64,000 nucleotides of DNA, from contig CABYCI010000001.1 of assembly GCA_902517425.1 (NCBI GenBank), positions 42,620-106,619 on the forward strand. Direction: 5' to 3'. The position numbers and the translations under genes were made by a program. The stretch comes from an uncultured SAR86 cluster bacterium (lineage in GTDB: Bacteria; Pseudomonadota; Gammaproteobacteria; Magnimaribacterales; D2472). Under the pieces are notes generated by a model. That model searched no databases. It was not told the origin of the DNA and was given only the letters and a program-made list of their open reading frames with translations. Below, piece by piece: positions 8,161 through 46,959 of this stretch (positions within the stretch are counted from its first letter, which is position 1; every line of letters starts with the position of its first letter).

Positions 8161-9747
8161 TCAATCGGATGCGTATCTTAACGCAGCCGAGAGTAATTTT
8201 TTAGTATATTTTTCTTTTGGGTAGTCAAAAACTTCTTTTGAAAGTCCAGATTCTACTATTTTTCCATCTTTCATAACAAAAATGTAATCTGACATTGATC
8301 TTATAACTTTTAAATCATGGCTGATAAATAGATACGTTAATTTATATTCCTCTTGAATATCTTTCAAAAGATTAATTACCTGAATTTGTATCGATCTGTC
8401 CAATGCTGAAGTTGGTTCATCTAAGATCATGAATGCTGGATTCATTATCAGCGACCGTGCAATTGCTATTCTTTGTCTTTGTCCGCCAGAAAATTCATGA
8501 GGATATTTATTTTTTGCACTAAGCTCAATACCTACATCAGAAAGAACTTTATCTATCCTGTTTTGTATTTCATGACTTTTTAGTTTGAAGTGAACACCAA
8601 GACCCTCTCCAACAATTTCACCAACTGTCATCCGAGGAGATAAAGAGCCATATGGGTCTTGAAACACTATTTGAATATGTTTTTTAATCTCTTTAGAAGA
8701 GTCTTTAATTTCTTTACCATTAAATTTTATCTTCCCTTCAAAATTAGTAAGGTTTGCAATTGCTTTTCCTAGTGTGGACTTTCCTGATCCTGATTCGCCA
8801 ACCAAACCTATAGTAGTATTCTTATAAATATTTAATGAGGTGTCTTTAACAGCATGAAATCTGTTTTTTTTAAAAAGATTTATATTTGGCATATCATAAA
8901 AAACATTTAAGTTCTCAATCTCAATAAGAGGCTCTTCGTTGTTATTTATATCTTGCTTTGGTTGTGGTTCGGCACTCAATAATTTTTGTGTATAGCTATG
9001 TTGAGGATTTTCAAATACATCATTTGTATCTCCACTTTCCACAATCTTGCCACTCTGCATTACACAAACTTGATCTGAAAATTCCTTAACTAGACCGAGG
9101 TCATGTGTAATGAATAAGATAGACATCCCCAATTCTTCTTTTAGTTTTGACATTAAGTCAAGAATTTGAGCTTGTATTGTCACATCTAATGCAGTTGTTG
9201 GCTCATCAGCAATTAATAACTTTGGTTTGTTTACTAGTGCCATTGCTATCATGATTCTTTGCCTCTGACCACCTGATAACTCGTGCGGATATGAACTAAA
9301 TCTTCTTTCGACGTCGTCTATTTCAACTAGTTTCATTAATTCTATTGCTTCATCTTTAGCTTCTTTTTTTGAAGCATTTGTATGCAAAAGAACTGATTCT
9401 GTTATCTGATTGCCAACCTTATGATATGGATTAAGTGATGTCATTGGTTCTTGAAAAACCATTGATATGATATTTCCTCGAATTGATAATAGTTCTTTTT
9501 TGGAAGCACTAATAATTTCTTTTTGATTAAAGTGGATAGAGGATGCATTTCCATAGGTTGCTTGTGGCATTGGTAGCAGCTGCATAATCGACATTGCAGT
9601 AACTGATTTACCTGATCCTGACTCACCTACAAGTGCAAGAGTTTTATTTGTTTCAATATCAAAACTTATATCATCAACAGCCCTAAAAGAACCATCTCTA
9701 ACTCTAAAATCAATACTCAAATTTTTTACTTCAACAATGTTTTTCAT
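8161..9747 (-). CDS. Duplicated-ATPase ABC protein of the Dpp/Opp/YejF type
   Basis: Two complete cassettes are present: Walker A GESGSGKS twice, signatures LSGGQRQR and FSGGQRQR, and Walker B LLIADEPT and MILDEPTS. Size is 528 aa. Confidence 0.9.
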   Translation of the reverse strand: MKNIVEVKNLSIDFRVRDGSFRAVDDISFDIETNKTLALVGESGSGKSVTAMSIMQLLPMPQATYGNASSIHFNQKEIISASKKELLSIRGNIISMVFQEPMTSLNPYHKVGNQITESVLLHTNASKKEAKDEAIELMKLVEIDDVERRFSSYPHELSGGQRQRIMIAMALVNKPKLLIADEPTTALDVTIQAQILDLMSKLKEELGMSILFITHDLGLVKEFSDQVCVMQSGKIVESGDTNDVFENPQHSYTQKLLSAEPQPKQDINNNEEPLIEIENLNVFYDMPNINLFKKNRFHAVKDTSLNIYKNTTIGLVGESGSGKSTLGKAIANLTNFEGKIKFNGKEIKDSSKEIKKHIQIVFQDPYGSLSPRMTVGEIVGEGLGVHFKLKSHEIQNRIDKVLSDVGIELSAKNKYPHEFSGGQRQRIAIARSLIMNPAFMILDEPTSALDRSIQIQVINLLKDIQEEYKLTYLFISHDLKVIRSMSDYIFVMKDGKIVESGLSKEVFDYPKEKYTKKLLSAALRYASD

Positions 9748-10787
9748 AGTATTTTTTTATATTCTGATAAAAAATCATTAACTGCTTTTCTCGCAGCTTT
9801 TAAACGAGTCATTGATGCAAAGCCATGGAACAATGACGGATAATGTAATTGTTTCACAAAAGTACCATTTTTATGAAGCAAAAAAGCATAATTTTCTGCT
9901 TCATCTGATAGTGGATCAAAGCCAGCTGTTACTATGATTGTTTTTGGTAAATTAGTTTTTTCTTTGTATTGCATCAAATTAAAGGTGTTAGTATCGTTAT
10001 CTTCAATATTTGATTGAAACTTTTCCCAAAACCAATGCATTGCTTTTTTTGTAAGTAAATAGTTCTCTTTGAATAATTCATGTGACTCATAATCACAGCT
10101 TGGATCACACATAGGATATATCAAAAATTGACTATGAACATTTACTGTATTTTCATTTGCTAATTGATGAGTTATTGAAGCAGCAAGATGTGCTCCTGCG
10201 CTATCGCCACATAAACTTATATTATTGATACTGATTCCAGTCTGTATTAGCCATTGAATAGCAGCCATACCTTCATTGAGTTGAGTAGGAAACTTATGCT
10301 CAGGTGACAGAGAATAATCTAAGGAATAGATCTTTGTTCTAAGTTTCTCTGCAAAATATGCAACCGTTGGATCATGTGTTTCAATTGAATTTAGAACATA
10401 TCCACCTCCATGAAAAAATAATATTATATTTTCATTATCAGTTTGGTAAGGTATATATTCTCTAATTTTAATGTCTTTATCTTTTCCTATTTGATGGTCT
10501 ATTTTTTGAATTTTCTTTTTAATATTCTTAAATAATCTTAAATTTCTTCTTTTTTGTTCAATTGAATTTCTTATCTCATGAATATTTTCATTTGATACCT
10601 CGTGGATATTAAATTTCGGTATCAAGGACAGGAAAAATTTAGATTGAATATCAAAAATAAAATTTCTCTTAACATCTTTATTAAAAATGCTAATTAAGCT
10701 TAAAAACCAAACTGGAATTAAGAAAAAAATATTTATAAAAAAATTTCTAAGCATATTCACGTAATTATAAGTAAAGTATGACTTCAC
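9744..10787 (-). CDS. Membrane-anchored alpha/beta hydrolase (family IV / HSL-type esterase)
   Basis: Oxyanion motif HGGGY, nucleophile elbow GDSAGA, and downstream DPLSDE and HGF are present. There is a hydrophobic N-terminal helix (FFINIFFLIPVWFLSLISIF). An ATGA overlap joins it to the ATPase. Confidence 0.8.
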   Translation of the reverse strand: MKSYFTYNYVNMLRNFFINIFFLIPVWFLSLISIFNKDVKRNFIFDIQSKFFLSLIPKFNIHEVSNENIHEIRNSIEQKRRNLRLFKNIKKKIQKIDHQIGKDKDIKIREYIPYQTDNENIILFFHGGGYVLNSIETHDPTVAYFAEKLRTKIYSLDYSLSPEHKFPTQLNEGMAAIQWLIQTGISINNISLCGDSAGAHLAASITHQLANENTVNVHSQFLIYPMCDPSCDYESHELFKENYLLTKKAMHWFWEKFQSNIEDNDTNTFNLMQYKEKTNLPKTIIVTAGFDPLSDEAENYAFLLHKNGTFVKQLHYPSLFHGFASMTRLKAARKAVNDFLSEYKKIL

Positions 10788-10819
10788 TTTATATTTGGTG
10801 AAGTTTATCCTACATATTA

Positions 10820-11233
10820 ATGAAAAAGATATTATTTATAATAATTGCGGTTATATCTAGCATTGAAATACTAGCTGATCAAAATAATCTATTTTCTAAA
10901 AAAAATAATCAAATTCTTCCAGCGGAAGAAGCTTTTGGCTTTAACTTAAAAAAAATCAATCAAAACATTATTGCTACTTGGGAAATCAAAGATGGTAATT
11001 ATTTATATCTTCAATCTGTGCTTGTTAAAATAGGTGATAACGAGGTTAAGTATAAAGTGATAAAAGGAGATGCTTTGGATTATAAAGATGAGTTTTTTGG
11101 AGAAACAGAAATAATCAAAAATATATTAGAGATTGAATTTAAAAATGATGTTTTAGATATGGAAGCAAAGATATATTACCAAGGCTGTTCAGAAAAAGGA
11201 TTTTGCTATCCGGTACAGGAAGTAAAAATATAA
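10820..11233 (+). CDS. DsbD N-terminal (alpha) domain-only protein with signal peptide
   Basis: ILPAEEAFGFNL...ATWEIKDGNYLYLQSV, KDEFFGETEII and YYQGCSEKGFCYP parallel E. coli DsbD residues about 20-130, including both redox cysteines. The ORF stops 7 codons after CYP. No membrane or thioredoxin-like domain follows. Confidence 0.65.
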   Translation: MKKILFIIIAVISSIEILADQNNLFSKKNNQILPAEEAFGFNLKKINQNIIATWEIKDGNYLYLQSVLVKIGDNEVKYKVIKGDALDYKDEFFGETEIIKNILEIEFKNDVLDMEAKIYYQGCSEKGFCYPVQEVKI

Positions 11234-11276
11234 TAAAATCTTATAAAATACAGTAAAATCGTTTAAAATCTGTAAT

Positions 11277-11711
11277 ATGAAAATATTAGTCTTAAATGGT
11301 CCTAATCTTAATTTGCTTGGCTTGAGAGAAGAAAGTATTTATGGATCTGATTCACTTAGTGACGTTGAAGATAAACTCAAAGAGATTGCAAACAAATCTA
11401 ACTGCGAGATAGGTTTTTACCAAAGCAATGCTGAACATGAATTAATTGATGCAATTCACAATGCTTATCGTGATAAAACTGATGCAATTATTTTTAATCC
11501 AGCTGGATATACTCATACTAGTGTTGCTTTAAGAGATGCTCTTTTAGCCGTTAGAATTCCTTTTTTAGAAGTTCATATCTCAGATATAGAATCAAGAGAA
11601 GAATTTCGACAAAAATCCTATTTTACCGATATTGCTGAAAAAACTATAAGCGGTAAAGGGACTAAGGGATACGAAATGGCATTAGATGAGGCATTAAATA
11701 TTAAAGGATAA
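11277..11711 (+). CDS. aroQ: 3-dehydroquinate dehydratase, type II
   Basis: [36 protein letters not shown] and EVHISDI are the canonical AroQ blocks. Confidence 0.95.
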
Positions 11712-11715
11712 AATT

Positions 11716-11892
11716 ATGGATATAAGAAAAATTAAAACGCTGATTGAAATGTTAGAAGAATCAACTTTGAAAGAAATTGAAGTAAGTCAAGGAGATGAAT
11801 CTGTAAGAATTTCAAAACAAACAAATGATGTTAGTATCACTGAACAAAATAATTCAAATGACTCTTCAGATCGATTCAAAACAAACGACTAA
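11716..11892 (+). pseudogene. accB: accB N-terminal fragment (58 codons; biotinyl domain absent)
   Basis: Below the ORF-track size cut-off. Hand translation gives [58 protein letters not shown]. The first 33 residues track E. coli AccB [34 protein letters not shown]. It starts 5 nt after aroQ, as in the usual aroQ-accB arrangement, but leuS begins at 11920. Confidence 0.7.
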
Positions 11893-11919
11893 CAACTTCT
11901 TACAAATTTAAAAACAAAA

Positions 11920-14325
11920 ATGAGTTCAAACTATAATCCAAAATTAATTGAAGAAACTATTCAAAAAAACTGGGATAAAGAAAATAGATACGTTTCTAAG
12001 TTAGACGATAGAGAAAAATATTATTGTTTATCGATGTTTCCATACCCTTCTGGGAAACTGCATATGGGTCACGTTAGAAACTATACGATTGGGGATGTGA
12101 TTTCTAGATATAAAAGAATGAAAAATTTTAATGTATTTCAACCTATGGGATGGGATGCATTTGGATTACCTGCAGAAAATGCCGCTATTGCTAATAAAGT
12201 AAGTCCTAAAGAATGGACAAAACAAAACATTGAGAATATGAAGAGTCAGCTGAAATCTCTTGGATTTAGTTATGACTGGACCAAGGAACTTAGAACGTGT
12301 GAATCAAGTTACTATAAATGGGAACAGCTTATATTTAAGAAATTTTATGAAGCTGGTCTAGTTTATCGAAAGAAGTCTATGGTTAATTGGGATCCTGTTG
12401 ACGAAACGGTCTTAGCAAATGAACAGGTTATTGATGGCAAGGGATGGAGATCTGGTGCACAAGTAGAAATAAAAGAAATTGATCAATGGTTTATAAAAAT
12501 AACTAATTACGCAGAAGAACTTCTTAACTCATTGGATGATTTAGATTGGCCAGAGAATGTAAAAATAATGCAAAAAAACTGGATTGGTAAATCTAGAGGT
12601 GCAGAAATTAAATATCAAATTGATAGCTCTGAAAGTTATTTGACAACATTCTCAACAAGACCAGACACAATCTTTGGTGTGTCATTTTTAGCAATATCAC
12701 CAAATCATCCACTGGCAATTGAATTGGCTGGAAGTAATAACGGCATTGCAGAATTTCTTGAAAAATGTAAAGAAGTTAAAGCAGCGGAAGCTGATATAGC
12801 CCAAGCAGAAAAATTGGGAATAGATACTAATATAAAAGTTATTCATCCTTTAACTGGTAAGCAATTACCAGTTTGGATTGGAAACTTCGTCTTATTAGAT
12901 TATGGAACAGGAGTGGTTATGGGAGTGCCTGCCCATGACACCAGAGATCATGAGTTTGCTTCAAAATATGGTCTTGATATAAATCAGGTTATTAAAACAG
13001 AAGGTGATGAACTGCCTATCCTTGAAAAGGGCGAGCTTATAAACTCAGATAACTTCAATGGCATGGAATCAGATGCAGCGATCAAAGAAATAATAAATGA
13101 ACTTATAAAATTAAAATTAGGTGAAGAGTTAATTCAATTTAGACTGAGAGATTGGGGAGTAAGCAGACAAAGATATTGGGGTTGCCCAATACCTGTAACA
13201 TACAAAAATGGAGTGCCAACTGTTGTAGATGAAAAAGACATGCCCATTAAACTCCCAGAATTAGAAGAAAACTCGCCGCCTATTCCATTGAGTCAGAATA
13301 AAAATTTTATAACAATTGATGAAAAGACTTTAAGGGAAAGTGATACCTTTGATACTTTCATGGATTCATCTTGGTACTATGCAAGATTTACATCAGCTGA
13401 TAATAGCAAAGATGTTTTCGATGAAAATACAAAATATTGGCTACCAGTAGATCTTTATGTTGGTGGTATAGAACATGCTATTTTACATTTATTGTATTCT
13501 AGATTTTTTCATAAGGCGCTGCGAGACATAGGGTTGGTTGAGGGTGATGAACCATTTAAGAGATTGCTTACCCAGGGGATGGTTTTAAAGGACGGTGCAA
13601 AGATGTCAAAATCAAAAGGCAATACTGTAGATCCACAATCATACATTGAGAAATATGGCGCAGATACGGTAAGACTATATATGATGTTCACTGCTCCTCC
13701 AGAACAAAGTCTTGAATGGAGTGAATCGTCGGTTGAAGGTGCATCAAGATTTCTAAAAAAAATATGGAATTTAGTCGAAGGAAGAAAATATAATAAACTT
13801 AATGATCAAATTAAATTTTCTAAAGATGAGCTCGCGCTTAGAAGGAAATCTCATTCAACTCTAAAGAAAGTAGAAAAAGATTACGATGTAAGGTTTGCTT
13901 TTAATACTGCAATAGCAGCAATCATGGAATTATTAAATTTTATTCCAGAAAGTTACAAAAGTGATAATGCATCAGACACAGAAAAATATTGTCTAGATGA
14001 AGCAATATTATTTATATTGCAGATGCTCTCACCAATTGCTCCACACATTTGTGAATATCTATGGAAAAGCTTTTGCGGTTTAGAGTCATGTATTGAGTCA
14101 TCATGGCCAGAAATAAATGAGGCATTATTGAAAGTCGAAGATTTTGAACTAATTATCCAGGTCAATGGCAAAGTAAGAGGAAAGATTAAAATAGATAAAA
14201 ATATTGATCAAATGGAAATTGAAAAAATAGCGCTTAACGTTGAGAATGTAAAAAACTATATAAGTTCTTCAAAAATAAAAAAGGCCATATTCATCAAAGA
14301 TAGGCTTATTAATTTTGTAACTTAG
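11920..14325 (+). CDS. leuS: Leucyl-tRNA synthetase
   Basis: HMGH ([11 protein letters not shown]), KMSKS ([10 protein letters not shown]) and the CP1 editing block TRPDTIFG are present. Size is 801 aa. Confidence 0.97.
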
Positions 14326-32293: not shown

Positions 32294-33591
<1,298 letters not shown>

Positions 33592-33657
33592 TCATACTAA
33601 ATATTAGTGTTTAATGAAAATTATTAATAATGCTCATTCTTTTAATTACGCATAAAT

Positions 33658-33686
33658 TTGATACATTTTTAAGTTTTTTGTATGAT
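33658..33686 (+). promoter_or_regulatory. Putative sigma70 promoter of the proteorhodopsin gene
   Basis: TTGATA (33658-33663), a 17-nt spacer and TATGAT (33681-33686). Downstream in the leader are a perfect hairpin GGAGTA-ATTT-TACTCC (33709-33724) and the SD AAGGAG (33736-33741), 6 nt before the ATG. Confidence 0.45.
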
Positions 33687-33747
33687 AGACACTTGTATAT
33701 TTCAGGGGGGAGTAATTTTACTCCTACTTACTTATAAGGAGTTATAT

Positions 33748-34476
33748 ATGAAATTTTTATTAACAATGGTTAGTGTTCTTGCGCTACCTGCTTTTGCTGC
33801 TGACTTGCAGACAAGTGATATCACAGGAGTGACATTCTGGCTGGTAACAGCTGCTATGCTTGCTGCTACTGTATTTTTCTTTGTTGAAAGAGACAGAGTT
33901 CACGGCAAATGGAAAACATCATTATCAGTTGCTGGTTTAGTTACTGGTGTGGCGTTTTGGCATTATCTCTATATGAGAGGTGTTTGGGTCGAAACTGGAA
34001 CATCGCCAACTGTATATAGATACATTGACTGGTTAATCACGGTTCCACTTCAAATTATTGAGTTCTACTTAATTCTTAAAGTGTGTACTAACGTTAGCTC
34101 AAGCGTATTTTATAAGCTTTTAGGAGCTTCATTAGTTATGCTTGTAGTTGGTTTCATGGGTGAAACTGGTTCAAACGCAATGATTTGCGGAATAGTAGCA
34201 ACACTTGCATGGTTATACATTATCTATGAAGTATTTTCTGGCGAAGCTGGAAAATTAAATGCTTCAAGTGGTAATGCTGCAGCACAAAGCGCATTTGGAA
34301 CAATCAGATTGATTGTTACTTTTGGTTGGGCTATATATCCAATAGGATATTGGCTTGGCGCAATGGGCGGTGGTGATATGGCTGGTGCAAATACAATATA
34401 TAACCTTGCTGATTTTATAAATAAAATCGCGTTTGGTTTAGCTATTTACGTTGCAGCTGTTAGCGACTCAGAATAA
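33748..34476 (+). CDS. Proteorhodopsin (light-driven proton pump), Gln105 blue-type
   Basis: The ORF is near-colinear with SAR86 green proteorhodopsin: FWLVTAA..VFFFVERDRV..KWKTSL..FWHYLYMRGVW.ETG.SPTVYRYIDWLITVPLQIIEFYLIL...FGWAIYPIGY...IYNLADFINKIAFGL. Asp97, Gln105, Glu108, His75 and the Schiff-base Lys are all readable. The start is set at ATG 33748 (MKFLLTMVSVLALPAFA signal) instead of ORF-track 33682. Confidence 0.92.
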   Translation: MKFLLTMVSVLALPAFAADLQTSDITGVTFWLVTAAMLAATVFFFVERDRVHGKWKTSLSVAGLVTGVAFWHYLYMRGVWVETGTSPTVYRYIDWLITVPLQIIEFYLILKVCTNVSSSVFYKLLGASLVMLVVGFMGETGSNAMICGIVATLAWLYIIYEVFSGEAGKLNASSGNAAAQSAFGTIRLIVTFGWAIYPIGYWLGAMGGGDMAGANTIYNLADFINKIAFGLAIYVAAVSDSE

Positions 34477-34492
34477 TTTAATTTTTATTCTT

Positions 34493-34520
34493 AAAACCCA
34501 GCTTTATGCTGGGTTTTTTT
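34493..34520. terminator. Bidirectional rho-independent terminator shared by proteorhodopsin and the convergent SDR gene
   Basis: AAAACCCAGC-TTTAT-GCTGGGTTTT forms a perfect 10-bp stem, followed by T7 on the + strand and preceded by A4 (U-tract for the - strand transcript). The SDR stop codon (34519-34521) abuts it. Confidence 0.8.
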
Positions 34521-35241
34521 ATGGTTGAATTTCTTCACCATTCCAAGCAAAGATCTTGCCTGTATCTTCGATATCAAGATTAGCAATAACTTCGAGTAAT
34601 TTTTTTGCGCTATAGTCTGGAGTAAAAAGACTATTGCTCTTAACATTTTTTTCAAACGGCTTACTCAGATAACTTTTAACTGTCCCTGGTTGAAGCCCAA
34701 CAAAAATAGCTTCAGGATTAGATCTTTTCACTTCAATGCTAAAATTTTTTATGATCTGGTTGAGAGCAGTTTTGCTTGCTCTGTATGAATACCAACCTCC
34801 TATTTTATTATCAGTGATGCTCCCAACTCTTGCACTTAAAAATGCGAAAGTGCTTTTGGTACTTTTTTGTAATAGGGGGATAAAATATTTGCCTACTAAT
34901 GTTGGGCCAATAGTGTTTACTAACAATACTTTCTTAAGTTTGATGGAATTAATATCTCTGATGCTTTTCTCTGGAAATATATCATCGTCATTATGAAGTA
35001 TTCCAGTGGCTACAAAGACTAAATCAAATTTAATATCATTAGGTAACTTTTGAACAGCTTGTTTAATTGAATCCTCATCTTCTATATCAATAACAATATT
35101 CTTTACTTTATCAGTATCTTTATCATTAATTTTCCTTGAAAACTTATAAATACAATCAACTAGATCATCTTTCAAAAGATTTTCTGAAATTGAGTTTCCA
35201 ATAGCTCCATTGGATCCTATGACAGCAACTATTTTTTTCAT
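34519..35241 (-). CDS. Short-chain dehydrogenase/reductase (SDR)
   Basis: The nucleotide-binding loop is VIGSNGAIGNSI and the catalytic YxxxK is YRASKTALN. Size is 240 aa. The substrate is not inferable. Confidence 0.8.
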   Translation of the reverse strand: MKKIVAVIGSNGAIGNSISENLLKDDLVDCIYKFSRKINDKDTDKVKNIVIDIEDEDSIKQAVQKLPNDIKFDLVFVATGILHNDDDIFPEKSIRDINSIKLKKVLLVNTIGPTLVGKYFIPLLQKSTKSTFAFLSARVGSITDNKIGGWYSYRASKTALNQIIKNFSIEVKRSNPEAIFVGLQPGTVKSYLSKPFEKNVKSNSLFTPDYSAKKLLEVIANLDIEDTGKIFAWNGEEIQP

Positions 35242-38783: not shown

Positions 38784-39263
38784 ATTAATGATAAATATCT
38801 TGTATTAAGAGGTAAAAATAAAGATATCTATTTTATACAGAAAAGGCTATCAAAAGAAGCTGCAGCTATATTTGGTAAAGGTTTTATTAAAAAATCATTG
38901 GAAACTACTGATATTCAGGTTGCTAGAGCAAAAAGAGATAAAATTCTGCATAATATCGATGAAATGATAAGAAATAACGCTGTGAATAATGGCTTAAATA
39001 ACGATAATTCTAAAGATTTTACTCAAAATAAGGAATTTGAAACCAAATCGGTTAATAAATCGTTAGAATCTAAAAATATGTATGTACCCATAAAAGATTT
39101 TGCAGATTCAAATGCACAAGAGTACAGTAAAAATAATGATTTTAACTTTTTTTCTATTAAAATACCTAAACTTCCAAAAAAAGAGGAGATTATTATGAAG
39201 ATTGATGGATTTATACCAATAGCTATATTGATTCTTACTTTATTTATTGCCTTTATTGTCTAA
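38775..39263 (+). CDS. Hypothetical protein: integrase-arm-like N-terminal domain, low-complexity linker, C-terminal hydrophobic helix; possibly an integrase remnant
   Basis: Residues about 8-65 (YLVLRGKNKDIYFIQKRLSKEAAAIFGKGFIKKSLETTDIQVARAKRDKILHNIDEMI) fit the pattern YYFR.RVP..L....GK.EI..SL.T.D...A seen at the N-terminus of many tyrosine integrases. No catalytic R..HxxR..Y region follows. The C-terminus is IPIAILILTLFIAFIV. The 3' end overlaps the convergent kinase gene by 24 bp. Confidence 0.35.
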   Translation: MSTINDKYLVLRGKNKDIYFIQKRLSKEAAAIFGKGFIKKSLETTDIQVARAKRDKILHNIDEMIRNNAVNNGLNNDNSKDFTQNKEFETKSVNKSLESKNMYVPIKDFADSNAQEYSKNNDFNFFSIKIPKLPKKEEIIMKIDGFIPIAILILTLFIAFIV

Positions 39264-40112
39264 TTTAAGCTCTAAATTACTTATAAAATCTTCTTTTATT
39301 GATCCTTTATGTATTTTATTTATAACATAAGCCCAAATTAAATCTAAATATGAGTTCATAAGCCTCCAGTCATTAATATTATCAATAACTTTTGAATCAT
39401 TTTTAATACCATAAGATCTTATTAAAATATTAATTTCTTGTCCTTTAAGGTTAAAAGATTCTACTATTCTAGAAATGTCACAAAATCTACTATTCATCCC
39501 AGAATATTCAAAATCTATAAAGCACATATCTTTTCCACTACACAATATATTAGTGGCATTCAAATCATTGTGTGAAAATATTTTCTCGCCCTTTTCATAT
39601 AATTCTATTTTTTTAAATAGATAATTTATTTCTTCTACATATTTATTTTTCTTATTAGATATTAAAATTTTATTATATGCAGATAGTTGATCTTCAAATG
39701 TTTTAATATTTTTATTTGGTTTAATTGAATGTAAATTGCTAAGAGAAATTCCTATTAATTCTATTAACTTGTTTCTTCTTAATTTAAGATTATTTTCTTC
39801 AAAATATTTATAAATTAAGACTCCTTCTTTTTTATTATAGTAAGTAACCTCTGGAAATAATTTTTTCACTACCATCTGGTCTTGAATTGAATTGATTAAA
39901 AATTGGTTGGTAATTAATTTATTTTTTTGATTTTGTTTTTTAAATACTTTAATTATTGATTTATCTTTTTTATATTTAGCTAAATAGGTATTAGCTGTGA
40001 TGCCACTTCTGACTTTGTTTAGTATTACAAACTTTACCTTAGAACTTTTAAGGACTTCATCAATTTCAGTCATATTTTTCGCGTAGATTTTTTTTCCAAG
40101 AGATATATCCAA
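39240..40112 (-). CDS. Choline/APH-fold small-molecule kinase, predicted thiamine kinase by context
   Basis: The Brenner motif is HNDLNATNIL, followed by FIDFEYSGMNSRFCDI (the choline/thiamine kinase D.EY motif). It is the last gene of a TPP-riboswitch operon. The real start may be ATG 40073 (MTEIDEVLK), which would reduce the overlap with the pnuC-family gene to 8 bp. Confidence 0.7.
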   Translation of the reverse strand: MDISLGKKIYAKNMTEIDEVLKSSKVKFVILNKVRSGITANTYLAKYKKDKSIIKVFKKQNQKNKLITNQFLINSIQDQMVVKKLFPEVTYYNKKEGVLIYKYFEENNLKLRRNKLIELIGISLSNLHSIKPNKNIKTFEDQLSAYNKILISNKKNKYVEEINYLFKKIELYEKGEKIFSHNDLNATNILCSGKDMCFIDFEYSGMNSRFCDISRIVESFNLKGQEINILIRSYGIKNDSKVIDNINDWRLMNSYLDLIWAYVINKIHKGSIKEDFISNLELKLDNKGNK

Positions 40113-40635
40113 AAATAATTATTACCAAGTAAACTGAAAATAACCCAGCTGTTAAAAAAAGCTCTCTAGACACAAAAATGTATATTGAAATAGAATCTAT
40201 TACAAACCAATATAACCAATTCTCTAAGACTTTTATAGCAACCATATATGTTGTAATTATTGCACCAAAAGTTGTTATTGCATCAAGAAACGGTAATGCT
40301 GCATTAGTATATTTATTAAGTAGTAATCCTAATAATAATGAGATGATTAAAATAATGCTTATTACATAAAAATGCGTTTTTAATTCCCATGTTTTTATTT
40401 TGATTGACTGATTTCCAGCATATGACTTCCTCCATTGATTTAAACCAAATAATGCCATACCTATGTAGAAAATCTGGAGGCAAGCTTCCATGATTAAGTT
40501 AGCATTTATCATTATAAAGAAATATAATGATGAACTAATTATAGCCGCATACCAGCATTTTACGTCTTCTTTGGCAGCAAAAAAAAGATATAATAATGCC
40601 GTGGTAACAGCTAAAATTTCAATAATAGATGTCAT
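40066..40635 (-). CDS. PnuC-family vitamin transporter, predicted thiamine-specific (PnuT type)
   Basis: 189 aa with about 7 TM helices. PnuC blocks are present: FGLNQWRK and KVLENWLYWFVIDSISIYIF...GYISWKK. It lies downstream of a TPP riboswitch. Confidence 0.78.
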   Translation of the reverse strand: MTSIIEILAVTTALLYLFFAAKEDVKCWYAAIISSSLYFFIMINANLIMEACLQIFYIGMALFGLNQWRKSYAGNQSIKIKTWELKTHFYVISIILIISLLLGLLLNKYTNAALPFLDAITTFGAIITTYMVAIKVLENWLYWFVIDSISIYIFVSRELFLTAGLFSVYLVIIIFGYISWKKNLREKYD

Positions 40636-40641
40636 TTTAAA

Positions 40642-42735
40642 TTAAAATTTATATCTTATAGTAAAGCCAATGTTTCTAGGATCTCCCTGTCTTTTATATA
40701 GAGTTTCAGTAAAATCTGGGGCCTCGTTTCCAAAGAAAAAACCTCTAGTTGAATAGTATTTATCAAAAATATTTCTTACCCAAAACTCTGCAGATAAATT
40801 AGCTTTTGAATATCCTATCGTTGCATTAAGCAGTTGGTATTTTTTAGATTTATTATCATGAGAATCAGAGTAATAGAAACTACTTTTACCATTAAAATCA
40901 ATTTTTACATATAGATTATTTTTTAAATCTAAGTTAGCTCCAACTGCATATGTCTTTTCAGGAGCGTGTGCTTGAGCTCTATTCTGAAGATCAGTTCTAG
41001 ACTCCCAATTTTTGATTTTAGTTTTTAAGATACCTAAATTGGCAAATAAATTTAAGTTATTATTTAAAGAATAATTTGAGTCGATTTCTAATCCATAATT
41101 TTCTCCCTCAGCAGCATTTTGAGTTAAGAAAGAAAAAGTATTTGGATCAGTTGGATCTACTTGCTTTGATATTAAAACTTGTTGATCTTCTCTCTTTGAG
41201 AAAAATATAACTAAAGAATAATTTAAATCTGTCATATTTGAATTAATTCCAATCTCGTAGTTTGTTAAAAATTCTGGGTCATACAAAAGAGAATCTTTAT
41301 TTGAATTATCAGTAGCATCAAGTCCAAGATTGAATCCACCTTGTTTATATCCCCGAGCGATTGAGACATAAATATTTGAGTTATTTTTATTATTTTTAAT
41401 TAATGAAATCTTTCCTCCGTTCATATTATCTGACGGATTAAAAGATTCATTATTTGAATCCTTGTATTTCGATTCCCAAGTCTCATATCTCAATCCAAAA
41501 GCAATCTTATAATTATCTGATAAAAAATAATCAAAATTTCCAAATATTGATACGTTTTCAGAATCATAATTTCTTGAAACTATTGTTTCACTTACATATG
41601 GGCCATAGGGATCAGATGGATCACCATAAATTCCATCATCTTTGGTTATATTTGTTTCTTCCAGTTCACTAAAATTAAAACCAAAAATCCATTCAAATGG
41701 GTTATTTTTAGAAAAATCAGTATTTTTTGATAAAATACGTAATTCTTGGTTAAAAGTATCTCTTTTTCGTAGTGTTTCTGAAAAATAATCATATGTATAA
41801 GGGAAATGAGAGTCATAATTTCCCCAATCTGCATCATAACTAAAAATAATGTCGGTTTTGGTGGAACTTGTTATGCTTTGAAGTTCAAAATTAACAAAAT
41901 TCTTAGAAATTTTTACTTTAAATGAATCAGTATTTTGAGAATCCATCCCTGGACGATCTGATAGCGTATTTAGACTACCATCAATAGTCCAAATATCAGC
42001 CGGGTCGTCCATATCAATTTTTGAAATTAGAAAATCTATATTTGTAGTTTCATTAAACTCCCAATTTAATTTATATCGCAATGTCAGTTCATCTTTTTTT
42101 GAAGTATCTGATTTATTTAGGTAAATATTTTTTCTAAAGCCATCTGCATAATCAGTTCTGAAAACAACACGATATTTTAATTTTTTATTTTTCATTGGTC
42201 CGCCAAATGCAACGCCTATATTTTGTGTTCCATAATCACCAATAGTTAATTCAGAAGTGCCTTCAAATTTATCAGTTGGTTCTTTAGTTTTAATATAAAT
42301 TAATCCTGCAAGAGCATTTGCACCTGCTCGTGAACCTTGCGGCCCTCGATAAACCTCAACCTGATCAACATCAAATAGAGTTGCAATTCCACCTTGTCCA
42401 GAATAATCAATATCATCTATTAAAAATCCAACAGAAGAGTTGGGTGTTCCTTGGTAGCCAGATCTCTCTCCGATTCCACGAATCTGAAAATATCTTGCTC
42501 TAGAATCTGAAGCAGCATAATTTAGATTAGGTACAAGGTATGAGAGCTGTTGAAAATGTTTTATTGCTTGCGACTCAATTTTTTTTGACTGAATAATTGT
42601 GATACTTGAATCTTCTTCATTGATAGGTTTTTCTCTGTATTCTCCTTTAACGATGATCTCTTCTACATCTTGTGAAAAAATAGAAATAGAAAATAATATT
42701 GGTAAAAGAAATAAAAAAAATTTTCTGATATACAT
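40642..42735 (-). CDS. TonB-dependent outer-membrane receptor
   Basis: Signal peptide MYIRKFFLFLLPILFSISIFSQ, the plug block VEVYRGPQGSRAGANALAGLIYIKTKEP, and a beta-barrel ending in IGFTIRYKF with a terminal Phe. The start is moved from 42774 to ATG 42735, because the 13 extra codons lie inside the riboswitch. Confidence 0.9.
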   Translation of the reverse strand: MYIRKFFLFLLPILFSISIFSQDVEEIIVKGEYREKPINEEDSSITIIQSKKIESQAIKHFQQLSYLVPNLNYAASDSRARYFQIRGIGERSGYQGTPNSSVGFLIDDIDYSGQGGIATLFDVDQVEVYRGPQGSRAGANALAGLIYIKTKEPTDKFEGTSELTIGDYGTQNIGVAFGGPMKNKKLKYRVVFRTDYADGFRKNIYLNKSDTSKKDELTLRYKLNWEFNETTNIDFLISKIDMDDPADIWTIDGSLNTLSDRPGMDSQNTDSFKVKISKNFVNFELQSITSSTKTDIIFSYDADWGNYDSHFPYTYDYFSETLRKRDTFNQELRILSKNTDFSKNNPFEWIFGFNFSELEETNITKDDGIYGDPSDPYGPYVSETIVSRNYDSENVSIFGNFDYFLSDNYKIAFGLRYETWESKYKDSNNESFNPSDNMNGGKISLIKNNKNNSNIYVSIARGYKQGGFNLGLDATDNSNKDSLLYDPEFLTNYEIGINSNMTDLNYSLVIFFSKREDQQVLISKQVDPTDPNTFSFLTQNAAEGENYGLEIDSNYSLNNNLNLFANLGILKTKIKNWESRTDLQNRAQAHAPEKTYAVGANLDLKNNLYVKIDFNGKSSFYYSDSHDNKSKKYQLLNATIGYSKANLSAEFWVRNIFDKYYSTRGFFFGNEAPDFTETLYKRQGDPRNIGFTIRYKF

Positions 42736-42817
42736 ATGCAATTCCTCCGCAACTATTGTGTTGATCAGGTTCAAAGAGTTTCCTAAGATCTCAGACTTTC
42801 AAGCCACCCCTTTGCAT
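42736..42817 (-). promoter_or_regulatory. TPP (THI-box) riboswitch
   Basis: The minus-strand RNA reads AUGCAA-A-GGGGUGG-CUUGAAAGU-CUGAGA-UCUUAGGAAACUCUUUGAACCUGAUC-AACACAAUAGUU-GCGGAGGAA-UUGCAU-AUG. It contains the conserved GGGGUG, CUGAGA, ACCUGAUC and GCG.AGGAA elements and a P5-like hairpin CAAC/GUUG. A 6-bp P1 (AUGCAA/UUGCAU) has its 3' strand abutting the start codon, and the SD GGAGG lies inside the aptamer. Confidence 0.8.
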
Positions 42818-42910
42818 CTAAAGCTTATATTAATAGATATTCATTTAATTTAGTAGTGTTGATTTTAAATAAATTCTGGGTATATATGATAATATATTTA
42901 GTACCGCATA

Positions 42911-45762: not shown

Positions 45763-45841
45763 GGGCCTGTAGCTCAGTTTTGGTTAGAGCGTTCGACTGA
45801 TAATCGAGAGGTCGGAAGTTCGAGTCTTCCCAGGCCCACCA
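45763..45841 (+). tRNA. tRNA-Ile (anticodon GAU), CCA encoded
   Basis: Hand-folded cloverleaf. Acceptor stem is GGGCCTG/CAGGCCC. D arm is GCTC-AGTTTTGGTTA-GAGC. Anticodon arm is TTCGA-CTGATAA-TCGAG, with GAT at 45799-45801. Variable loop is AGGTC and the T arm is GGAAG-TTCGAGT-CTTCC, followed by discriminator A and CCA. Confidence 0.93.
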
Positions 45842-45871: not shown

Positions 45872-46069
45872 ATGGAAAAATTTCTAGAAACCATTCTAGC
45901 TTATAACAAGATAGGGTTTGGTTTAATTTTTATTGGGAGTGTTTTAAATGCAGTATCTCAGGAAATTGTTGTCTTAAATGAAGTTCCGTATCTTTCATCA
46001 ATAAGTTTTTTATTAGGTTTTGTTATTGGGCTTGTAGCACATATTAGGGGAAAATGGTTATGGGTCTAA
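45872..46069 (+). CDS. Possible small two-helix membrane protein
   Basis: 65 aa with two hydrophobic segments (FGLIFIGSVLNAV, ISFLLGFVIGLVAHI). It overlaps the desaturase start by 16 bp. No homology was recognised and it could be spurious. Confidence 0.25.
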   Translation: MEKFLETILAYNKIGFGLIFIGSVLNAVSQEIVVLNEVPYLSSISFLLGFVIGLVAHIRGKWLWV

Positions 46070-46959
46070 AAATCAGAGATGCTATATCTGAAGAGTTTTC
46101 ATTTGAAAAAGAAAAGGCTGTTGCAAAAAAATACGCTCAAAGATTTCAATGGGAAATGATTTTAATTGGCATTGGTCAGGCCTGTGTATGGTTTAGTTTG
46201 TGGCCGTTGGTTATATATGAAATCATTCCCTTATGGGTAGGATTTATAATTGCTAGTATCTGTGCGTGCATGGCCTATTTGCCATCACATGAAGCACAAC
46301 ATGGAAACTACTCAAGGGGCAATCCTAAAAAAAGATGGTTAGATTCTTTTGTTGGTAACTTTACTCTTGTAACATTAATTTATCCTTATGAAATATTGAG
46401 AGTTACTCATATGAAGCATCATGCATATACAAATCATGATGATAAAGATCCTGATTTTTTAACTTCAAATGCTAAATCTGTTGTAGAACTTATTTTGGTA
46501 TCTCTTAATGGAGCATCAACAGAATATGATAAAGCTAAAGAAATATATTCTAATGATATAGCTTTTCAAAAAGGTTTTGAAAAAGGCATAAAGGTTGCAT
46601 TGGCATACAGGGCAATATTAATGTTGCTAGTTTTCATGTTTCCACTTCAAACACTTTTATTGTGGTGGATACCTGCAAAAATTGGCACTGTATATACACA
46701 AATATTTTTTTCATACTATCCGCATATTGGTACAGAAGTTGGAAGATATAAAGATACAAGATTTTGGCAACATTGGATGCCAAGGTATCTTAATCACTCA
46801 ATGCAATTACATTTTGTACATCATCTTCATCCAAATATTGGACATTATGATGAGCCTAAAGCTATAGAAGAATTAAAACCATTCTTGATTGCTAGAGGGG
46901 TGCCAGGCGCAGAAGAAATTCCAGACAGAGTTACCTATAATCCTTTAGTAAAAATCTAG
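46054..46959 (+). CDS. Membrane di-iron fatty-acid-desaturase-family enzyme (three His boxes), substrate unknown
   Basis: The His boxes are HEAQHGN, HMKHHAYTNH and HFVHHLHPNIGHY, with TM helices before box 1 and between boxes 2 and 3. Confidence 0.75.
   Translation: MVMGLKIRDAISEEFSFEKEKAVAKKYAQRFQWEMILIGIGQACVWFSLWPLVIYEIIPLWVGFIIASICACMAYLPSHEAQHGNYSRGNPKKRWLDSFVGNFTLVTLIYPYEILRVTHMKHHAYTNHDDKDPDFLTSNAKSVVELILVSLNGASTEYDKAKEIYSNDIAFQKGFEKGIKVALAYRAILMLLVFMFPLQTLLLWWIPAKIGTVYTQIFFSYYPHIGTEVGRYKDTRFWQHWMPRYLNHSMQLHFVHHLHPNIGHYDEPKAIEELKPFLIARGVPGAEEIPDRVTYNPLVKI

Follow-up and report, generated by a model that had tools for sequence, protein, structure and literature searches.

Background

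In the surface ocean, proteorhodopsin (PR) phototrophy ranks among the major ways in which solar energy is captured, with bacteria of the SAR86 cluster being some of its most abundant hosts. Under the residue-105 rule, a PR with Gln at this position absorbs maximally near 490 nm, and Gln105 accounts for about 80% of the PRs found at 25-125 m at Station ALOHA (PMC5864233); it is the ordinary, majority state in the open ocean. For a blue SAR86 PR from BAC MED49C08, proton pumping and a fast photocycle were reported in 2005, and fast photocycles are also the state of natural blue SAR86 PRs and other Mediterranean PRs, the slow cycle (by tenfold) being that of HOT75 only (PMC1175822). The eBAC31A08 GPR, which likewise comes from SAR86 (structures 2L6X, 7B03 and 8CQC), has Leu105 and is green.

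The question of where SAR86 obtains its chromophore has stood since 2012, when five retinal-pathway genes were found to be missing from four SAR86 genomes as well as from SAR86 BACs and fosmids, and scavenging was proposed (Dupont et al. 2012, PMC3358033). The lack of the pathway was repeated in later studies (PMC4989322, PMC7734400 and PMC7367891, the last with a larger genome set). Retinal-free apo-PR is stable, has a solved structure and loads added retinal (PMC11322631). Scavenging is not the sole option, however, because the actinobacterium Aurantimicrobium, which has no blh, makes retinal by an unknown route (PMC7734400). In clusters of the MED66A03/HF10_19P19 type, a homologous PR is directly followed by crtE, crtI, crtB, crtY and blh. 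Finally, some rhodopsins, such as the Kin4B8 xanthophyll rhodopsin (XR) and the flavobacterial PRs KR1 and EinA29G6, bind a xanthophyll antenna, for which Gly at XR position 156 is required in Kin4B8 and the flavobacterial PRs.

Results

The window, by which we mean the whole 64-kb stretch of DNA analysed here, holds a PR gene on its plus strand (33748-34476; 242 amino acids plus stop). Among species-representative genomes, the best matches of its product all carry the label SAR86 cluster (95% identity to AH-321-C05, AH-326-O02 and AG-390-K11, 87% to SAR86A), synteny with SAR86 relatives, at 67-100% identity, extends over TolC, fpg, coaD, a short-chain dehydrogenase/reductase (SDR), a VC_2705-type Na+/solute symporter and serA, and the GC content of the region is about 31%. 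The best explanation for the host is a gammaproteobacterium of the SAR86 cluster, close to the SAR86A type. SAR86A itself (JH611157, Dupont et al. 2012) and the three single-cell genomes just named, with PRs 87-95% identical to that of the window, have the same order of tolC-fpg-coaD, PR and SDR-SSF-serA, and share with it Gln105, the fenestration Gly, the promoter, leader, Shine-Dalgarno (SD) sequence and terminator. SAR86A and three other lineages (loci L007, L008, L010 and L023) differ from the window in having a family-III CoA-transferase gene (CaiB or formyl-CoA-transferase-like, about 1.3 kb) inserted between coaD and PR; in L010, the SAR86A scaffold, it occupies 8595-9830 on the minus strand, and the PR promoter and leader are intact. 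The exact PR protein is already deposited (MFL2719868.1, labelled "bacteriorhodopsin-like", the only kind of label found when named close homologues were sought), and it occurs on at least 176 contigs and in 217 collection blocks of marine metagenomes, Tara samples among them, with the same gene neighbourhood throughout. An exact-protein look-up of two other proteins of the window gave no match.

The protein matches Pfam Bac_rhodopsin (PF01036) at 1.7e-42 over residues 26-236, and its top PDB matches are GPR 8cqc (3.3e-89), BPR Med12 4jq6 (3.2e-87) and BPR HOT75 4kly (5.2e-85), with an identity over the aligned length of 64% to GPR (239 residues) and 66% to Med12. This full-length similarity to seven-transmembrane bacteriorhodopsin-like proteins and to solved PRs places it in the PR clade of type-1 microbial rhodopsins. 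When its residues were mapped to GPR numbering from the HMMER alignment, H72 corresponded to H75, R91 to R94, D94 to D97, T98 to T101, Q102 to position 105, E105 to E108, D222 to D227 and K226 to K231. The original prediction had read His75 (in FWHYLYM), Asp97, Glu108 and the Schiff-base Lys directly from the translation; the quoted motifs are present and the mapping bears out each of them. The Schiff-base lysine in helix G (K226, 34423-34425), the counter-ion Asp residues and the Arg are all there, and both the DTE proton-pump motif (Asp97, Thr101, Glu108) and the PR-specific His75 are complete. Med12 and HOT75 have the same pump residues, and eBAC31A08 GPR has the same His75, Asp97, Glu108, Asp227 and Lys231, in addition to the same host lineage and a signal peptide of the same type (PMC11322631) as the N-terminal MKFLLTMVSVLALPAFA of the window PR (33748-33798). 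Against four SAR86 orthologues dN/dS is 0.07-0.13, and the protein is therefore under strong purifying selection. Taken together, these comparisons support its assignment as a real DTE-motif PR, putatively of the blue type.

Public gene calls for this PR (33682-34476) include both the 242-residue form and an over-extended form of 264 or 265 residues. We rejected the 264-residue frame that opens at the ATG at 33682 as the true start, given that this ATG sits inside the -10 box and has no SD, that the extension is closed in SAR86A, and that both the PR-family N-terminus and the signal peptide begin at MKF.

At the spectral-tuning position, Q102 (codon CAA, 34051-34053) aligns with L105 of GPR and with the Gln of Med12, which shares the whole helix-C motif RYIDWLITVPLQIIEFY, Gln105 included, with the window PR. 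The alignment to reference GPR and BPR sequences that had been proposed as a check thus returned Gln at position 105 and retained equivalents of Asp97 and Lys231. Gln105 is also found in 76 of the 87 related PRs that were fetched. Leu105 PRs (L030, L031 and L033; 62% identity) occupy the same slot between coaD and the SDR. An absorption maximum near 490 nm is thus predicted for the window PR from its residue 105, although residues besides 105 can shift the maximum, which counts against a certain blue call. The original prediction had tied Gln105 to both blue-shifted absorption and a slow photocycle: the link to blue is kept, but a slow cycle should not be assumed from Gln105, because MED49C08 is fast and HOT75 alone is slow. 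The PR on the SAR86A scaffold (L010, 10001-10729) also has Gln at 105 (RYIDWLITVPLQ), at odds with its description as "putative green-light tuned" in Dupont et al. 2012 (PMC3358033).

Both neighbours of the PR gene are on the opposite strand and it is therefore monocistronic, the stand-alone transcription unit that had been predicted. Upstream and divergent is coaD (phosphopantetheine adenylyltransferase, 33100-33582, minus strand; Pfam CTP_transf_like in identical loci, and SAR86 synteny), separated from PR by a 165-bp gap that forms the control region, and 42 bp downstream the SDR gene ends in the convergent orientation on the minus strand. Between the two convergent genes, and common to both, lies a bidirectional intrinsic terminator, AAAACCCAGC-TTTAT-GCTGGGTTTT plus a T-tract (34493-34524), whose perfect 10-bp stem, as originally described, closes a 5-nt loop (34493-34517) with A4 before it and T7 after. 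The element is conserved in 14 syntenic loci, and in the distant lineages L030-L033 CCCAGC/GCTGGG is replaced by CCCGGT/ACCGGG, that is, by two compensatory pair changes; GC-rich stem-loop, U-tract and covariation are thus all present. A second, small A/U hairpin (GAATAA...TTATTC, 34471-34490, plus strand) is predicted over the PR stop codon, in most syntenic relatives as well.

A sigma-70-type promoter precedes the gene, with a -35 box TTGATA at 33658-33663, a 17-nt spacer and a -10 box TATGAT at 33681-33686 (10 of 12 consensus positions). Taken by itself, the match to the consensus has no significance, since in this AT-rich region promoter-like sites are rarer than in shuffled sequence (4 observed around PR versus 10.6). 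What argues for the promoter is conservation: in an alignment of leaders from 13 SAR86 lineages (PR identity 62-100%), the TTG-TA positions of the -35 box and the TAT-AT positions of the -10 box are invariant in diverged flanks, as are a GGGGGAGT block and AGGAGTT..ATATG in equally diverged surroundings. The promoter of the original prediction is therefore present, and it is this conservation rather than the consensus score that speaks for it. Transcription would start near 33691-33695. Another -10-like hexamer, TATATT at 33696-33701, was discarded, as it has no -35 box and is not conserved.

The leader hairpin that had been predicted was also found, at 33708-33725 with seven pairs, as part of a leader element (33705-33725, plus strand) that comprises a G-run and the invariant GGGGGAGT at 33706-33713, which forms the 5' arm. 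In every SAR86 PR leader (L007-L033, L016-L021 and L040), GGGGGAGT and a hairpin precede the PR start by 30-45 nt, the block being always before or inside the small hairpin, and GGGGGAG is kept even in leaders of SAR86 PRs from other genomic contexts. Rfam covariance models gave only chance-level matches (E of at least 5) over 33560-33800. We considered an anti-SD switch, since the 3' arm ACUCCU could pair with the SD AGGAGU in the clade of the window, and rejected it: the pairing is missing in L028-L033, minimum-energy folds leave the SD free and compensatory changes are absent, and for these reasons we do not claim a riboswitch-like mechanism. The GGGGGAGT element might serve as a stem-loop that stabilises the mRNA, as a standby site for ribosomes or as a site to which a protein binds. 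In Pelagibacteraceae (SAR11) the PR leaders (L044-L086) have a different element at a comparable position, a conserved perfect palindrome TAGTTTAAATTTAAACTA about 45-25 nt upstream of the SD, which in these organisms is GAGGGAG.

The SD of the window PR, AAGGAG (33736-33741), can be read in the sequence 6 nt ahead of the ATG, and relatives keep it unchanged. It had been called strong and rare in the window, and indeed AAGGAG occurs at only 2 of 63 starts, a 4-mer SD core is missing at 50 of the 63, and the PR anti-SD duplex (-8.8 kcal/mol) ranks second in strength among them. Signals of this kind suggest that PR may be highly expressed.

No gene for making the chromophore was detected. Among all ORFs of at least 90 amino acids in the 64-kb window, a Pfam scan found no polyprenyl synthase, phytoene synthase, phytoene desaturase, lycopene cyclase, BCD/blh or RPE65-type oxygenase (PF00348, PF00494, PF01593, PF05834, PF15461, PF03055) and no diox1-type gene. 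A six-frame tblastn search of the window with crtE, crtI, crtB, crtY and blh from L037 and L051, identified beside PR in Porticoccaceae and Methylopumilus loci, gave no match at E-values up to 0.01, and none was obtained within 10 kb of PR in any syntenic SAR86 locus, whereas the same queries detected the operon in 14 non-SAR86 loci. The window therefore lacks the PR photosystem gene cluster (PR with crtEIBY and blh) that is seen in L037, L051, L064, L074 and other loci, whose PRs are 60-65% identical to that of the window. The original prediction, which had noted no crtE/I/B/Y or blh-like ORF in 64 kb, is upheld by both searches. Its remark that retinal supply is unexplained locally is correct as to the absence, but this is no peculiarity of the window, because the missing pathway is a published trait of the whole SAR86 lineage. 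For the population from which the window comes, genome-wide absence of blh and crt genes rests on the literature for related genomes, the window being 64 kb of about 1.2-1.7 Mb.

The only gene ever proposed to act on the chromophore, and one absent from the original prediction, is the convergent SDR (34519-35241, minus strand, 240 amino acids; Pfam adh_short, sniffer/PRK09009-type carbonyl reductase subfamily): the SDR that flanks PR in SAR86 was noted by Dupont et al. (PMC3358033) and put forward as a retinoid oxidoreductase. It is a classical SDR with the YxxxK motif; it scores 213 bits against NCBIfam PRK09009, an uncharacterised model, which is under the cutoff of 330, and its best PDB match is the Drosophila sniffer carbonyl reductase (2.8e-10). 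No match of the window SDR to a retinoid-specific SDR family was found, and the 120 homologues that match it best are without exception close SAR86 orthologues with uninformative names. The SDR adjoins PR in SAR86 lineages whose PRs are 55-100% identical, and no such SDR is found near SAR86 PRs in other contexts (L016-L022). As its similarity is of a generic SDR or sniffer-like kind and the PRs of L016-L022 do without it, we do not regard it as a demonstrable retinol dehydrogenase. In three Porticoccaceae loci, L037, L053 and L073, a PR-crtE-crtI-crtB(-crtY-blh) operon is preceded, at a distance of 2.4-4.3 kb, by a PRK09009-type SDR (6828-7571 in L037), a co-occurrence that is suggestive of a functional link between SDR and PR and is not proof of one.

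At a further position the window PR differs from both Med12 and GPR. G148 (34189-34191) falls in the same MAFFT column as W138 of BR, F152 of GPR and the Trp of Med12, and corresponds to Gly156 of XR, so that the window PR has the small residue that is typical of fenestrated rhodopsins; the Phe published for this position in GPR 31A08 agrees with the mapping. Thus eBAC31A08 GPR combines Leu105 with Phe152, and Med12 has Gln105 with Trp, where the window PR has Gln and Gly148. The equivalent Gly is fixed in the locus PRs of the SAR86A-type clade (17 of 17) and is present in 77 of the 120 closest cluster representatives, compared with none of 73 other related PRs, all of which have Phe or Trp. 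Helix E (34180-34215) reads CGIVATLAW in the SAR86A-type clade versus xF(V/I)IGMAGW in other PRs. Among the papers available to the search, none was found that connects SAR86 with fenestration. Gly148 and the invariant GGGGGAGT leader are two features beyond the original prediction, and constitute a modest residual lead.

Discussion

We consider it quite probable that this gene is, as a whole, to be explained as a SAR86 blue outward proton pump, encoded as a single-gene unit in a host that has no pathway for retinal and scavenges it. The protein would be exported by means of its cleavable signal peptide and, as a seven-helix protein, would bind all-trans retinal at Lys226 (GPR Lys231). In the light it would pump protons outward, with Asp94 as the acceptor, Glu105 as the donor and a His72-Asp94 pair, and its Gln at GPR position 105 would bring absorption close to 490 nm, which suits clear oceanic water. 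Expression would be driven by its own conserved sigma-70 promoter and an unusually strong SD, and would end at the hairpin terminator common to the convergent SDR. The chromophore is not encoded nearby because the SAR86 lineage lacks crtEIBY and blh; most likely, the cell obtains retinal or a precursor (retinol or an apo-carotenoid) from its surroundings.

One may also consider that the pump is the same and the cell makes its own retinal, by crt and blh genes located elsewhere, a variable region being one candidate place, or by an enzyme that is yet to be described. At most 5% of the genome was seen, and Aurantimicrobium shows that retinal can be made without blh. Moreover, the SAR86 single-cell genome of locus L036 has a CrtO-like flavoprotein of the phytoene-desaturase family adjoining PR, and the window itself has an ORF of the fatty-acid-desaturase family whose best NCBIfam match is the beta-carotene hydroxylase CrtR (60 bits, cutoff 475). 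Both of these matches are, however, far under the family cutoffs, and the pathway is missing not only from the four SAR86 genomes, BACs and fosmids but also from the later, larger genome set, while syntenic SAR86 loci have no crt or blh gene within 10 kb of PR, as against the 14 non-SAR86 loci that do. We therefore find synthesis by the cell unlikely. A photosensory or regulatory role, formerly proposed for blue PRs that cycle slowly, in place of energy pumping appears very improbable indeed: the tenfold slower photocycle of HOT75 BPR would fit a sensor, but the window PR has the full DTE pump motif with its equivalent of the Glu108 donor, no transducer or signalling gene adjoins it, the SAR86 blue PR of MED49C08 is a fast-cycling pump, and a strong SD is suited to a bulk membrane protein.

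A further reading, which extends the scavenging pump rather than excluding it, is that of a two-chromophore pump, in which retinal would be joined by a hydroxylated carotenoid of the zeaxanthin or lutein type, bound via a fenestration opened by Gly148; the antenna would then need to be scavenged as well. Such binding may be argued from a Gly at the XR Gly156/BR Trp138/GPR Phe152 position, from its fixation in the clade, its frequency among the closest representatives and its absence in the other PRs counted above, and from the fenestrated flavobacterial PRs, which bind lutein and zeaxanthin and lose this binding upon a Gly to Phe change. Gly is nonetheless necessary and not sufficient, as a fenestrated archaeal rhodopsin bound no carotenoids, and nearby residues of helix E are substituted as well (Ala for Gly at +3, Thr for Met or Cys at +4), so that the opening might be filled again. 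Kin4B8 XR, KR1 and EinA29G6 share with the window PR the Gly at XR 156 and the DTE motif, but they are green-tuned (Met or Leu at 105), as are all antenna PRs tested, and they come from carotenoid-producing hosts, whereas the window PR has Gln105 and a host reported to be devoid of carotenoid synthesis; neither synthesis nor import of xanthophylls is known for SAR86. With retinal already absorbing near 490 nm, an antenna at 450-500 nm would bring little spectral gain. We thus hold a xanthophyll antenna to be a tentative and rather doubtful addition to the scavenging pump. More speculative, and in our view quite unlikely, is the combination of all these features: a blue, fenestrated pump built entirely from scavenged pigments (retinal or retinol plus a xanthophyll), with the SDR interconverting retinoids and the GGGGGAGT element tuning the amount of apoprotein. 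It comes to mind because the host would make neither retinal nor carotenoids.

Neither the gene nor the missing pathway is new, since the protein was deposited before, pumping by a blue SAR86 PR was described in 2005, and the lack of the pathway and the SDR in 2012. The window restates the puzzle of the SAR86 chromophore and does not solve it. Its value lies in a clean, fully annotated locus of the SAR86A type and in two testable details, Gly148 in a blue pump and the invariant leader, both of which are open to experiment now that a SAR86 isolate is in culture (PMC11582366).

Several minor observations were made along the way. The flavoprotein gene of L036 (AG-390-J09; 10700-12286, minus strand) is convergent with, and follows, a different type of SAR86 PR (65% identity), and its best NCBIfam match, the beta-carotene ketolase CrtO (281 bits, cutoff 1000), is odd for a lineage said to be without carotenoid genes. 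The membrane protein of the fatty-acid-desaturase family in the window (46054-46959, plus strand), with CrtR as its best match, is probably an ordinary desaturase or hydroxylase. Between its gene and that of a YciC-like membrane protein sits a lone tRNA-Ile(GAT) (45763-45841, plus strand), which is outside an rRNA operon and is the sole tRNA in the 64 kb. A TonB-dependent receptor gene (40642-42735) has its start overlapped by a TPP riboswitch (42725-42821, minus strand), which at 58.7 bits exceeds the gathering score; the receptor gene is followed, all on the minus strand, by genes for a PnuC-family transporter (40066-40635) and a thiamine-kinase-like or choline-kinase-like protein (39240-40112); this set is likely a thiamine uptake and salvage operon, which fits the thiamine auxotrophy reported for SAR86.
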